Shown: piece after piece, positions 7,079-10,572 of the stretch | Layout of the letters: every line of letters begins with the position of its first letter | Position numbering within the stretch: the first letter of the stretch is position 1 | NCBI GenBank assembly: GCA_030740155.1 | Contig: JASLXV010000042.1 | Span: forward strand, 1-10,572 | Direction: 5' to 3' | Length of the DNA stretch: 10,572 nt | Origin: Dehalococcoidia bacterium | GTDB taxonomy: Bacteria > Chloroflexota > Dehalococcoidia > Lucifugimonadales > UBA3495 | Notes under the pieces: model-generated | The model's database searches: none | What the model saw: only the letters and a program-made list of their open reading frames with translations | What the model was told of the DNA's origin: nothing | Position numbers and translations under genes: made by a program

Positions 7079-7213
7079 CCCAAGGAATGAATAGCTAACG
7101 GTCCACAGACACGGGTGGCCAACGCTGATGCGGGTACCTCCGAAGACGTGACGTACCAGACCAAGTGGGCCTTGGCATTGACCTTGATCGACCGTACCTT
7201 GGAGTGGCACGTT
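7079..7213 (+). pseudogene. IS701-family transposase fragment
   Basis: My translation PKE*IANGPQTRVANADAGTSEDVTYQTKWALALTLIDRTLEWHV resembles the IS701 segment LPxEW..DP.RR..AGVPEDV.F.TK..LAL..IDRA..WGV. An in-frame TGA sits where Trp is expected. Not in the ORF track. Confidence 0.6.
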
Positions 7214-7424
7214 CTAGACCGTCAGCGACAATAGGACACAACCAGGAGTAACAAAACCCGAGAGTGGGAAAGCGGCGTGAACCCCTGGAGTGAGGGTAAA
7301 GCACTCACACGATGGCGGAACGACCGAACCCTCGTTTTGCATCGCCCCGATCCTGTCGAACTGATGGGGTCCACTTCCATACGGCATTTCCAATAGACCT
7401 CCCTAGCCCCAATATGAGGAATAA

Positions 7425-7488: not shown

Positions 7489-8586
7489 GTGACAAACAAG
7501 ATTCGCTTGGGGTTTGTGGGAGCTAACATTAGGTCGACCTGGTCATCCCAGTCGCACTTCCCGGCGCTACTGGCCAGTCCGGATGTCGAGCTTACCGCGG
7601 TTTGCACCTCCAGGCCTGAGAGCGCGGAAGAGGCGCGCCAAGCGTTTGGAGCGAAGCTCGCCTTCCACGACTTCCGGGCGATGGCGTCGTCGCCAGAGAT
7701 CGACGCGGTGGCCGTGGTCGTGCGGGTGCCATCGCATTATGAGCCAACGAAGGCCGCCATCGAAGCCGGCAAGCATGTCTACACTGAGTGGCCACTGGGC
7801 CGGACTACCGCCGAAGCCGAAGAGCTGGCAGCGCTTGCTCGGGCCAAAGGGGTGCAGACGGCGGTCGGCCTGCAATCGCGGGTCAGCCCCGCATTGCTAT
7901 ACATCAAGGAGCAAATCGACGCTGGCTTTGTGGGCGAGGTGCTGTCCTGTCATGTCACCACGATGCGTGACGGCGCGTTGGAACGCCCTTCCAGCCGCAC
8001 TTGGCAGCGCGATGCCAGCCTCGGCGCTAACACCCTGACCATCGCCAACGGGCACGTGATTGACGCCTTGCGCTTCGTGGTGGGTAACTTCACACGGGTG
8101 GCGTGCATGGTCACGACCCAGGTACAGCAATTGTACGAGACCGATACTCAGCAATTTGTGGAGGTCACCTCCCCGGACAACGTGCGAGTATGCGGACAGC
8201 TAGAGAGCGGAGCGTCTGCGTCGGTCCATGTCGCGGCTGTCCCCTGGGCCGGCGGCGGCTTTCGAATGGAGATATACGGTCGGGAAGGCACGCTGGTCAC
8301 CACCGGGAGCGTCTCGTCTCAGCGCGGTGAGATGTTAGGCGTGCAAGGAGCACGGGGAAGCCACGAGTTGAGGGATCTGACCATACCCGAGCGTTTCGTA
8401 TATGTCCCGGCCGACTTCCCCCGCGGCGATCCGTTCAATGTCGGTCAGATGTATGCCCTGTTTGCCGAGGCGATCCGAACCGGGCAGAGCCGCCTGCCGA
8501 CGTTCGATGTCGCGGTTGACCTGCATCGATTTGTTGACACGATCAAGCAGGCGTCGGATACGGGCCGGGAGCTGCGTGTCGCCTGA
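7489..8586 (+). CDS. Gfo/Idh/MocA family NAD(P)-dependent oxidoreductase
   Basis: GTG start after RBS. Rossmann N-terminus KIRLGFVGA, EIDAVAVVV..PSH, AIEAGKHVYTEWPLG (EWP variant of EKP), GHVIDAL, MEIYGREG, and C-terminal PTFDVAVDLHRFVD. Confidence 0.93.
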   Translation: MTNKIRLGFVGANIRSTWSSQSHFPALLASPDVELTAVCTSRPESAEEARQAFGAKLAFHDFRAMASSPEIDAVAVVVRVPSHYEPTKAAIEAGKHVYTEWPLGRTTAEAEELAALARAKGVQTAVGLQSRVSPALLYIKEQIDAGFVGEVLSCHVTTMRDGALERPSSRTWQRDASLGANTLTIANGHVIDALRFVVGNFTRVACMVTTQVQQLYETDTQQFVEVTSPDNVRVCGQLESGASASVHVAAVPWAGGGFRMEIYGREGTLVTTGSVSSQRGEMLGVQGARGSHELRDLTIPERFVYVPADFPRGDPFNVGQMYALFAEAIRTGQSRLPTFDVAVDLHRFVDTIKQASDTGRELRVA

Positions 8587-8755
8587 GGAGACTTTTGTGT
8601 AAGAACGGGATACGTGTCATCTATGCGGACCGGACCATGGTGCAGGGAAATCTCATTGGTATTGCGGCCGATGGCGTGACAGAACTTGGCAACAAGTCAA
8701 TCCCTCTAATACTCCTGCCGATCCTCGTGGTTACGGCAGACTAAGGTTCAACTGT

Positions 8756-8905
8756 AGGCTGCTGGTCGACCGCATCACGGTGGAAGACCAGACCGTTATG
8801 ATCGAGACGATTATTCCCCACGGAAATGAACGTGGTCAATTGCGCACACGTCGTGGTGAGCTTGTCGAACCACCGGCCCTGCGCCCTTCGACAAGCTCAG
8901 GATGA
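8756..8905 (+). pseudogene. 3' remnant of a second large serine recombinase-like gene
   Basis: My translation RLLVDRITVEDQTVMIETIIPHGNERGQLRTRRGELVEPPALRPSTSSG* resembles the LSR C-terminal pattern 'R-L-L-V-x-R-I-x-V...V-x-I'. There is no plausible start or upstream domains. It reads into the palindrome. Confidence 0.6.
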
Positions 8906-8908
8906 ACG
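8849..8908. repeat. REP-like palindromic element (inverted doublet)
   Basis: Perfect 13-bp IR TGAGCTTGTCGAA (8857-8869)/TTCGACAAGCTCA (8887-8899) with a 17-nt spacer. Outer arms are CGTCGTGG and (rc) CGTTCATCC. Each arm is itself closed by complementary bases (GGT..ACC; CCT..AGG). Confidence 0.85.
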
Positions 8909-10447
8909 CTTGCCACCTACATCATTCTGGCGCCAGAGGCTGTAGGCGAAGAGGGGTGCGTACTGTGGCCGGGGCTTCACCGCCACCAGCCTACCCTCTC
9001 TCAAGCGGACCTCCAGGAAGACCTCCCTGGCCAGCTCCCGGCGCTGTTGTGATGTCACTCCGGCATGGTGCCATAAGGCAGGCAGGTCCTGCAAGAGTTG
9101 TGCAGCCCGGTCCAGGTTCGGCGTTAAGACTTGCGACGGCGGGGGCTCGAGGGCCCGGATCTGGCGCTTGAGCGCCTGGTACTCATCCTTGAACTCCTCG
9201 TCACCGATCACTCCCCAGAGGTGCTGTTTCCTGAGATTGGCCAACGCCGCCTCGGTCCGCTTGATGTCCACGCTGTTGTCAGGCTTCGGCCCTTCGCCGG
9301 CCAGGGCCAGCAGCACCGCCTGCCGCCAGCCATTGTCCAGGTTGAGACACTCCAGGACTCCTTCGGCCAGCTCCGTCTCCACCTTTTGGGCAGGTACTGA
9401 CTGGGGGCGCATCGGGCAGCGGCGCCAACTGTGCCTCATGCGCAAAGATCGGAGGCCATGGGAGCGGTGAGTAATTCCGTGGAAGGGCTCGCCACAACCG
9501 TCGCAAGTCAGAACTCCAGTCAGTGGATAGACTTGCTGCTCTTTACCCGGTGGGCTGACCCGGCCTGCCCCCGCACGTTCTTGCCTGACCTCCTGGCACC
9601 TCCTCCAAAGCGCCCGCACGTCCTCAGGCACCTTGTGGGCTCCATCGCGCACCTCCTCATCGGAACGGCCCAGGTGGTAGACGGCTTTGCCTTCGTAGAA
9701 GCGGTTGTTGAGGGCCGTGCTGATGGAACTCTCGGTGAATGACCTGTTGGCCGCCGTGCGGTATCCCTTGGCATTCAGGTCTTGGGCCAGGGTCCGGAAT
9801 GAGTGGTCCCCTGAAGCGTAGCCCCGCAGAAGCTGCAGGAGGGCAGGCATGGTCCCCTTGTCGGGCACCAACCTGGCACCCCTGCCGCTGGGAGGCTTTT
9901 CCTGACGGTAGCCCAGGGGGGCGTGGCCTATCACATGGCCCTGGGCGGCCTTGGCCGCGAAACCCGAGCGTACGTAGCGGGAGAGGTTCCTGCTGTAAGC
10001 TTCGTCCAGGGTCTCGTTGATCCGCTCCGCCAGGAAGTCCCGCTCGCTCCCGCTGATGATTCCCTGGGATACGAAGACCACTACCTTGTTCAGGTCCTGA
10101 AGCTGACGCTTGTAATGGATACACTCTTCCTGGTTGCGGCCGAAGCGGCTGGTATGGTCAACCAGGAGAACGTCGTATCTGTCCATCGCGGCATCGCCCA
10201 GGGCCCCCCGGAACTCGAGACGGTTCTTGACGCTTCGGCCACTCACGAATTCGGTGTACCAGCGATCGCCGAGAATTAGGCCGTACGACTCGGCGAAACG
10301 TATCTCGTTTTGCCTTTGGATATCCGGGCCATAGCCATCCTGTTGGTCCAGCTTGGAGTCTCTGACGTACCCTTCAGCCCGAAGGCCCCTCAGGTCCTCG
10401 AAGGTCATTTGAGCGGGGGCGCTCCTGTTCAAGAAGCTCGCAGCCAT
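8897..10447 (-). CDS. Large serine recombinase / integrase (resolvase + recombinase + Zn-ribbon/coiled-coil)
   Basis: 516 aa. Catalytic N-terminus GYVRDS..Q..GYGPDIQ, E.VSG...R..F, VDHTSRFGRN, helix E (EAYSRNLSRYVRSG..AKA.QG..G.APLGY), recombinase domain (SFRTLAQDLNAKGYRT...LNNRFYEG), Zn ribbon YPLTGVLTCDGCG, and a coiled coil. TGA stop at 8899-8897. Confidence 0.93.
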   Translation of the reverse strand: MAASFLNRSAPAQMTFEDLRGLRAEGYVRDSKLDQQDGYGPDIQRQNEIRFAESYGLILGDRWYTEFVSGRSVKNRLEFRGALGDAAMDRYDVLLVDHTSRFGRNQEECIHYKRQLQDLNKVVVFVSQGIISGSERDFLAERINETLDEAYSRNLSRYVRSGFAAKAAQGHVIGHAPLGYRQEKPPSGRGARLVPDKGTMPALLQLLRGYASGDHSFRTLAQDLNAKGYRTAANRSFTESSISTALNNRFYEGKAVYHLGRSDEEVRDGAHKVPEDVRALWRRCQEVRQERAGAGRVSPPGKEQQVYPLTGVLTCDGCGEPFHGITHRSHGLRSLRMRHSWRRCPMRPQSVPAQKVETELAEGVLECLNLDNGWRQAVLLALAGEGPKPDNSVDIKRTEAALANLRKQHLWGVIGDEEFKDEYQALKRQIRALEPPPSQVLTPNLDRAAQLLQDLPALWHHAGVTSQQRRELAREVFLEVRLREGRLVAVKPRPQYAPLFAYSLWRQNDVGGKRSS

Positions 10448-10498
10448 GGTCCTTTTCTCCTACGGGCGCTGTTGGAGCGTGGCGGTTCGGACAAAGAT

Positions 10499-10526
10499 AG
10501 TTTATCGGAGGGGATGGGCGAGTCAA
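10499..10526 (-). promoter_or_regulatory. Candidate sigma70 promoter of the recombinase
   Basis: Minus strand TTGACT (10526-10521), a 16-nt spacer, then TAAACT (10504-10499). A purine-rich RBS GGAGAAAAGGA precedes ATG 10447. Confidence 0.55.
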
Positions 10527-10572
10527 CCCCTGGAGGGCTTGTATCACGTTCGGTCGAAGAGGAGTAATGCCG

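Follow-up and report, generated by a model that had tools for sequence, protein, structure and literature searches.

Why should the 3' ends of two unrelated recombinase genes meet head-on in one short palindrome? The question is raised by a stretch of 10,572 nucleotides from a Dehalococcoidia bacterium, called the window below, which is the whole of contig C42 (JASLXV010000042.1) of the genome assembly G000 (GCA_030740155.1; 3.6 Mb in 108 contigs, 93.7% complete, 7.65% contamination); the sequencing runs that hold it are marine. An intact gene for a large serine recombinase (LSR), here LSR-1, ends in the right arm of the palindrome, and the C-terminal remnant of another LSR, here LSR-2, ends in the left arm. 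A sequence-only reading of the window had proposed that two LSRs of different lineages integrated here independently, each having the attachment site of its element (attP) in its own 3' end and using a multicopy palindromic repeat as the host site (attB). The ends of related genes, the left and right junctions (attL and attR) and the islands between such junctions bear out this proposal, and we consider it very probably correct.

Two recombinase gene ends in one palindrome

The palindrome spans 8855-8901 (47 bp) and is made of a left arm (8855..8871, + strand), a copy-specific spacer (8872..8884) and a right arm (8885..8901, - strand). It is predicted to fold into a hairpin of -15.8 kcal/mol (z -2.09), while a single arm folds into a 5-bp stem with an 11-nt loop. 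LSR-1 (8897..10447, - strand) has 516 residues in its integrated form. Its Resolvase (E 4e-17) and Recombinase (E 3e-8) domains are recognised by Pfam, together with a zinc-ribbon match below threshold (E 0.0011, 19.8 bits versus the curated cut-off of 25.3). Residues R29 and S31 of the catalytic serine motif are invariant across 49 aligned homologs, and the relatives found in PDB include the SPbeta and TP901-1 integrases. The TGA stop of the gene, at 8897-8899, is the TGA of the right palindrome arm.

On the opposite strand, the frame that runs from 8756 to 8855 consists of the final 33 codons of LSR-2. The same DNA is the P arm of the LSR-2 attR and matches the arm of LSR-2 attL, in mirror orientation, at 16 of 30 positions. 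The peptide is 55% identical over 33 residues to a partial LSR on contig C33 of the same genome (pairwise E 2e-7); it also matched 67 of 240 stored proteins, all from the LSR-2 set and none from the LSR-1 set, the best at 70% over 33 residues. The frame had been suspected from the letters alone to be an LSR C-terminus, and so it is. The two gene ends are also as dissimilar as they had seemed, the two families being 24% identical.

A chimeric assembly across the repeat could produce a head-on layout, and two facts would suit it: no single record spans the whole stretch in four runs, and G000 carries the contamination mentioned above. The spacer of this palindrome copy, however, occurs only once in G000 and is tied to either side by contigs of independent runs (8000-8901 in X1, X2 and X6; 8872-9135 in X3). 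Because it is both unique and bridged, misassembly is unlikely. The 47-bp repeat is, moreover, far shorter than the 141-bp contig overlaps of this assembly, and a chimera is in our opinion scarcely credible. The head-on layout recurs in four runs of four studies.

A multicopy repeat as the target

The palindrome had been expected to be multicopy, and a count over G000 gives 78 exact copies of the arm and 149 with one mismatch. They are mostly intergenic: 13 of 112 lie inside open reading frames (ORFs) of at least 200 residues, though such ORFs cover 72% of the genome. As a control for chance, an open frame of at least 150 codons stops in only six of the 153 G000 arms, one of these frames being the LSR-1 gene of the window. 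At L008:9104-9424, a gene for a GIY-YIG nuclease, an enzyme type that has been linked to such repeats, lies directly behind an arm used by LSR-1.

We fetched 119 LSR-1-type loci, of which 25 were dropped, as their match fell short of the 3' end; an arm was called at the stop when it had at most three mismatches to one of two arm consensuses. Among the loci more than 60.5% identical to LSR-1, 36 of 37 stop at offset 0 in an arm, versus none of 57 below that value, which, like the peptide pattern used for LSR-2 (see below), was set after inspection of the data, some of the loci being the same element in different assemblies. In the sole clade locus without a stop in the LSR-1 arm, the arm was later taken over by LSR-2. 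The ends of the proteins show the same division: the last residue falls no more than one position away from 516 in 63 of 70 close homologs, and in 2 of 45 distant ones. The clade uses a second family of repeats as well, which begins TGTCATTCTGAGCG and so starts with TGTC; 18 listed copies are present in genome G285.

Use of many sites, likewise anticipated, is evident from the flanks, which are distinct in 30 of the 32 clade loci long enough downstream for comparison. Locus L006 holds the same element as the window (97.7-99.5% over 5 kb of C42 and the neighbouring contig C70) in another copy of the repeat, and a near-identical LSR-1 P arm is found in L005 and L006, next to different neighbours. 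G285 carries an LSR-1 copy at each of two loci, and the two are 93% alike across 4,353 bp; this shared block of 4.35 kb was considered as an entire island and rejected, its left edge lacking a repeat half. None of the four outcomes named beforehand as refuting two integrations appeared: close homologs do not end in unrelated sequence, the palindrome is not single-copy, the remnant peptide does match LSRs, and the arrangement of LSR and palindrome is not fixed at one locus.

Named records with close LSR-1 relatives are mostly from Dehalococcoidia or Chloroflexota. Two clade members with the same arm (L001 and L002) come from records labelled Methanobacteriota and Planctomycetaceae, which may mean cross-phylum spread or misbinning. 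Viral contigs contained neither LSR-1 relatives nor the LSR-1 attL pattern. The 109 plasmid records that matched were all below 60% identity, with 8 listed at 23.7%. DUF4368 had no Pfam match in LSR-1 (E up to 1) or in the LSR-2 protein P0121 (E up to 0.1). G000 has four further LSR genes (C76:696-2330, C37:47819-49342, C13:23164-25107 and one on C82), none of which ends in this repeat; the one on C76 appears by eye to run into a comF-like ORF. PRTRC-like genes, also named by eye, lie upstream of the clade member at L023:132-2279.

Junctions and islands of LSR-1

If the arm is split by integration, its other half should lie at the far end of the element. A scan of G000 for left halves of the repeat that are not continued by the rest of the arm found three LSR-1 attL sites (on C2, C39 and C103). 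Each consists of a host half, the dinucleotide TG, and then the end of an element, in which 13 bp match the DNA of the final LSR-1 codons perfectly and in inverted orientation; in the window, this DNA forms the P arm of attR (8900..8929, - strand), which belongs to the element and encodes the last residues (...GGKRSS). The arms of attL and attR mirror each other around TG at 20-21 of 30 positions. Only ten non-self sites in G000 reach at least 20 of 30, three of which are the attL junctions, so that mirror symmetry whose register also fits a half of the repeat is no matter of chance. Over six attL/attR pairings from both families, the mirror register holds at 16-20 of 30 positions. Further LSR-1 attL sites in the same register were found in G285 (two), in L043 and L077 (one each), and in G537.

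Shared sequence limits the LSR-1 crossover to 8898-8901, and symmetry places it at the TG of 8898-8899 (- strand), which is the probable core. Contig C53 stops directly after the TG of the attL on C2, and the 141 bases up to there are common to it and the start of C2; the break resembles an assembly fork, and may separate an occupied allele from another one. With the crossover inside the arm at TG, the final RSS codons (CGT...TCC) lie in the attP arm of the element, an arm similar to that of the host. It had been proposed that both these codons and the stop come from the right arm; only the TGA does, and within the stop only the last base is certainly host-derived. The next host base after TG is what changes a Trp codon into TGA. 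The junctions had also been placed at the outer CGT edge of the repeat, while the crossovers actually fall 6-9 nt inside, at TG for LSR-1 and at CT or GT for LSR-2. The term "repeat-guided", used at first for this behaviour, is better replaced by "repeat-targeting": nothing suggests a guide, and the layout is one of att sites recognised by protein.

A complete island is seen in G537, where attL lies 60,554 bp from the LSR-1 attR in the same orientation, and the two halves rejoin into an intact arm. Its ORFs look, by eye, like metabolic and transport cargo. Distances between attL and attR, here and for LSR-2, may include accreted islands.

The same junctions bear on a different question, namely whether the repeat could be the mobile partner, with copies of the repetitive extragenic palindromic (REP) kind, or miniature inverted-repeat transposable elements, inserting at LSR 3' ends and truncating the genes. 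The repeats are indeed dynamic, in that orthologous intergenic regions of relatives often have no repeats or have them in other arrangements, and the nuclease gene adjoining the arm in L008 could be counted in favour of such mobility. Insertion of a repeat does not explain, however, why the arm is split, with its left half up to 60-66 kb away and fused to the missing LSR tail, why the halves rejoin into an intact arm, or why the cut falls at an identical base throughout the clade. Mobility of the repeat is largely refuted by these facts, and we give it next to no credence.

Three other candidates for LSR-1 junctions were dropped. Two of them were considered as attL and have no mirror arm: a GTCAT word at the homology edge of L019 and L028, and a repeat-like stretch that precedes some LSR genes by about 200 bp. 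L005 was considered as an LSR-1 attP and rejected, as the sequence next to its LSR-1 end is an LSR-2 left end with an LSR-2 tail.

Some genes near the junctions deserve mention. A glutamine-synthetase-like gene is located just inside the left end of the islands on C2 of G000 (L225) and on C1 of G464 (L213), 72% identical over 990 bp; the former island also has ammonium-transporter-like and PII-like ORFs, named by eye. In G285 (C2:1731017-1748546), core-like genes (by eye ftsA, ftsZ, clpP and pdxS) are found on that side of an LSR-1 attR where the island would be, which hints at a rearrangement between att sites.

LSR-2, a second family in the same repeat

LSR-2 is known from more than the remnant. 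In protein P0121 the Resolvase, Recombinase and zinc-ribbon domains are all above cut-off. Among 120 homologs, the frame reads into the repeat peptide in 71 of the 87 that are at least 50% identical, in 8 of 21 at 40-50%, and in none of 12 below. G000 contains further LSR-2 attR sites on C33 and C90, identical over 140 bp and then continuing into differing flanks, and attL sites on C12, C35 and C60 that are symmetric around CT. The probable core dinucleotide is CT in all five and GT in the window and in G464. In the window, the crossover is confined to a few bases around 8856, and the symmetry centre of the P and P' arms suggests GT at 8856-8857 (+ strand), a register one base apart from that of LSR-1 and further out. 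The left palindrome arm is then the host-derived half of this attR, and the right arm that of the LSR-1 attR. G464 has two LSR-2 copies; one of them lies between an attL and an attR that are separated by 65,698 bp and have GT as the probable core, making a second complete island. The exact LSR-2 attL pattern matched in G000 alone across 301 genomes.

The genes to the left of attL on C12 and to the right of attR on C90 are only 0.55-1.5 kb apart in G411, G413 and G417, with no island between them, so that these genomes would carry an empty LSR-2 site by synteny. Empty sites had been asked for in relatives; they are found for this pair and not for the window copy itself. On the left side of the window, similarity to G417 is retained behind the Gfo/Idh/MocA oxidoreductase gene (a Pfam assignment; 7489..8586, + strand) through a host intergenic flank (8587..8755), at 92% up to about 8755, and in G419 up to a point slightly before it. 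Similarity ends at about 8752-8755, where the remnant starts, and the orthologous regions have neither the LSR piece nor this repeat downstream. Since the likeness to G417 and G419 stops there, the remnant looks like an LSR-2 island deleted to its last 100 bp, with the deletion junction presumably at this point.

In L005, an LSR-2 left end and an LSR-1 right end meet at the register of LSR-2, which indicates that an LSR-1 attR stays usable by LSR-2. More distant relatives of LSR-2, about 30% identical (L130-L134, L137, L139, L146, L147 and L155), end in another hairpin family with long runs of G and C. This suggests a further group of repeat-targeting enzymes, the four rows of which in the tree described below do not form one clade.

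Tails left behind at integration

What does the enzyme lose when it is cut at the arm? Read in frame from the core, each of the eight LSR-1 attL ends codes for a peptide related to the others, about 28-33 residues long (48 in one case), with the motifs W/C-x-E-x-x-P-P-T and S-G-I/V-x-V-L. Beyond the att arm, the differences among five lineages are distributed over the three codon positions as 79/44/108, a pattern of coding DNA. Natural forms with the full, uninterrupted tail are P0072, L053 and L084. The LSR-2 attL ends likewise encode a conserved tail, of 21 residues with an RFTL motif. As the attL ends of both families encode conserved tails, integration truncates LSR-1 through a new stop, and replaces the tail of LSR-2 by read-through into the repeat. 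In a structure model of L053 (mean predicted local distance difference test score, pLDDT, 83), the tail contains a helix at 558-573 of moderate confidence, behind a linker below 50. The tail may have a role in directionality or regulation. With the tail staying at attL, circle and chromosome would encode different LSR proteins.

The module and the origin of repeat targeting

The start of LSR-1 is overlapped by the 3' part (10429..10572, - strand) of a conserved ORF of 81 residues, which begins on contig C70 behind a gene for a small serine resolvase with a weak helix-turn-helix (HTH) match; C42 and C70 overlap by 141 bp. The core motif of this ORF, LVEILADMLRSALAWE, is found upstream of the LSR in 69 of 80 loci. 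The ORF had no match in Pfam or Atlas and is, speculatively, a candidate directionality or regulatory factor. In L036, the module also includes genes for ParB and Mom; the ORF list for the 3.4 kb of C70, the assembled portion of this island there, contains neither.

Most of the 57 loci below the identity cut-off have their ends at tRNA or tmRNA (transfer-messenger RNA) sequence. Many loci about 50% identical to LSR-1 end in a repeat of the 3' end of ssrA (it matches the reverse of a primer in PMC3146451), and more distant LSR loci run into genes for tRNA-Pro, -Asp or -Asn or for tmRNA. We built a quick, midpoint-rooted tree of 69 rows, in which target labels were our own (L088 and the "tRNA-like" rows by eye), ten loci had no sequence, and row L036 is a wrongly extracted ORF to be ignored. 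All 15 repeat-targeting LSR-1 rows with a correctly extracted ORF fall in one clade (SH-aLRT 100) within users of tRNA and ssrA ends, and LSR-2 forms a separate clade (99). The simplest reading of this tree is that repeat targeting arose twice independently.

It might still be argued that the primary target of these enzymes is tRNA or tmRNA, and that repeats are secondary sites of relaxed integrases, given that sister clades have tRNA genes and the 3' end of ssrA as their targets and that the LSR-1 clade accepts two different repeat families. Yet tRNA or tmRNA sequence is found at none of the 37 clade ends; 36 are in an arm, and the exception is the arm later occupied by LSR-2. No tRNA or tmRNA gene is present in the window or in nine clade loci, and Rfam had no match in the window, C70 or L006. 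We therefore hold a tRNA or tmRNA preference to be very unlikely, and the arm to be the proper target.

Proposed course of events and activity of the resident copy

A host REP-like palindrome dimer would have been hit twice, once per arm. An LSR-2 island probably entered the left arm and was later deleted to its end; an LSR-1 island would have entered the right arm, and is intact as far as the window goes. LSR-1 would be the integrase of a genomic island with a module of small serine resolvase, small ORF and LSR with attP at its 3' end, and its lineage probably arose among tRNA- and tmRNA-targeting integrases and now takes the repeat arm as attB. It would recombine its roughly symmetric attP with any suitable arm at TG, giving tens of possible sites per genome, mostly intergenic, with conversion of Trp to TGA and retention of the conserved tail at attL. 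LSR-2, from an unrelated lineage, would perform the same act one base further out, losing its own tail.

Several observations weigh against two integrations as just described, or at least against parts of this course. Synteny did not pair any of the LSR-1 attL sites of G000 (C2/C53, C39, C103) with the window; of the far junctions that had been sought, three per family were found in G000, and the partner of this attR is not recognised among them. Three attL against one attR in G000 suggests that most LSR-1 copies have either decayed or been assembled only in part, and one attL is common to G000 and G411 at the same locus, so that some insertions are old. In G285, attL and attR are on different contigs or wrongly ordered, and pairing by synteny is not convincing. 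Mirror symmetry alone is modest, seven other genome sites reaching 20 of 30. The identity cut-offs and peptide pattern are post hoc, and related loci are not independent. Recombination between attP and attB by these very LSRs is deduced from the layout, and neither an excised circle of this element nor an empty allele of this exact copy was seen.

Some of these points lead to the supposition that both systems once targeted the repeat and that this LSR-1 copy is now stranded: its ORF would be intact but, lacking a partner end that works, it would be a fixed relic. The ratio of attR to attL, the attL shared with another species, the recurrence of the same layout in four runs of four studies, and the plainly dead LSR-2 side all agree with it. 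It is less easily reconciled with the near-identical element at another repeat copy (L006) and with the contig fork (C53) exactly at the attL core. Weak hints in the same direction, from contigs only, are that the depth on the LSR side is 0.77-0.84 of that on the host side in four runs, and that contigs of three of the four stop at 8901, the point at which an occupied and an empty allele would part. We consider stranding rather unlikely, and LSR-1 may be active at present.

Other features of the window

Two features are unrelated to the recombinases. Positions 7206-7315 are the end of a multicopy element, which is matched 31 times in G000 at about 75-84% and in many cases where a contig ends; they probably represent an insertion-sequence (IS) end. 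A perfect 16-bp inverted repeat at 1885-1920 lies between ABC substrate-binding and permease genes, and the motif adjacent to it has three copies in the genome.

Relation to known systems

The closest parallel is found in the ssrA islands of Dehalococcoides with their recombinases DsiB and DsiA (PMC3146451), which share with this locus an LSR 3' end overlapping att, a variable C-terminus, an adjacent small serine recombinase, variable cargo and island accretion; their ParB and Mom genes have counterparts in the relative L036. Those islands target single-copy ssrA, and here the target is a multicopy intergenic palindrome. The ssrA-overlapping LSRs of our set, which stand in for DsiB by their layout, are about 25% identical and fall in another clade. 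DsiA is described as having no DNA-binding motif (PMC3146451), unlike the C70 resolvase with its weak HTH match. The same paper speculates that DsiB is perhaps fully functional only on the circle; in the present case, the lost tail is identified and conserved. The locus works like a DsiB/DsiA island that has been retargeted, and is not an ssrA island.

A repeated host sequence as attB has a precedent in phiRv1 of Mycobacterium tuberculosis, whose serine integrase Rv1586c integrates in the REP13E12 repeat (PMC9317374, PMC1931498). phiRv1 is prophage-like; viral contigs gave no match to LSR-1 or to its attL pattern. REP13E12 is a long repeat with few copies, and the arms here are of about 27 bp with more than 100 copies. 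Multi-targeting LSRs such as Cp36, in which one LSR cluster occupies many chromosomal sites, are described in PMC10083194; the paper allows for targets present at several sites, the main clade being mostly DUF4368 proteins with relaxed motifs, whereas here there is a defined repeat and no DUF4368 match. The terms "palindrom", "repetitive" and "tRNA" are absent from the main text of that paper.

REP palindromes are known as precise, low-cost, multicopy targets of IS elements, such as IS1397, IS621, ISPa11, ISPpu9/10 and ISRm22 (PMC1525189). These are small elements of the IS3, IS110, IS4, IS256 and IS5 types, unlike serine integrases with islands of up to about 60 kb, and the word "serine" does not occur in the available text of that paper. 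Exchange of a C-terminus at integration, with att inside the integrase gene, is found in Mx8 and in streptococcal integrative and conjugative elements (ICEs) at rumA, the integrated form of Mx8 being reported as less active (PMC4701971). The Mx8 enzyme is a tyrosine integrase and the rumA ICEs have one target gene, while the present enzymes are serine integrases of two families, both of which shed a short conserved tail, one of them through a stop made at the crossover.

As to the repeat itself, CGTC-tagged REP families (PMC3733652) resemble it in being short palindromes that pair head-to-head as dimers and lie mostly between genes; according to the available text, no transposase dedicated to them is known. 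In the same portion they come from five phyla, Chloroflexota not among them, and have 8-9 bp stems with 4-5 nt loops; the second target family starts with TGTC, and the window arm misfits these stem and loop sizes. The literature covered, mostly non-subscription papers without supplements, holds no account of this system among LSRs that target REP palindromes. The idea of a repeat as attB is preceded by phiRv1 and the REP-targeting IS elements, and the locus does not constitute a new class.

Significance for Dehalococcoidia and for LSR specificity

For two integrase families that have dozens of members and are uncharacterised, the junctions provide natural attB and attP sites placed to the single base; at least some members lie at the edge of a 60-kb island. 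They also explain how small repeats serve as gene-gain hot spots in uncultured bacteria without gene breakage. The suggestion that DsiB is fully functional only on the circle becomes testable, now that the lost tail is defined.

A broader picture, possible and offered tentatively, is that several serine-integrase lineages of Dehalococcoidia-like bacteria share short host palindromes as a reusable landing platform, with two lineages demonstrated and a third group in the other hairpin family. Islands of different families would stack on one arm, directionality would depend partly on the crossover, which would remove the tail so that only the circle makes an integration-competent enzyme, and one clade would have switched from tRNA and tmRNA ends to two repeat families. 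The move of this clade offers material for studying or engineering LSR specificity and, if the shared platform is real, these enzymes would form a natural series in which LSR target specificity could be read.

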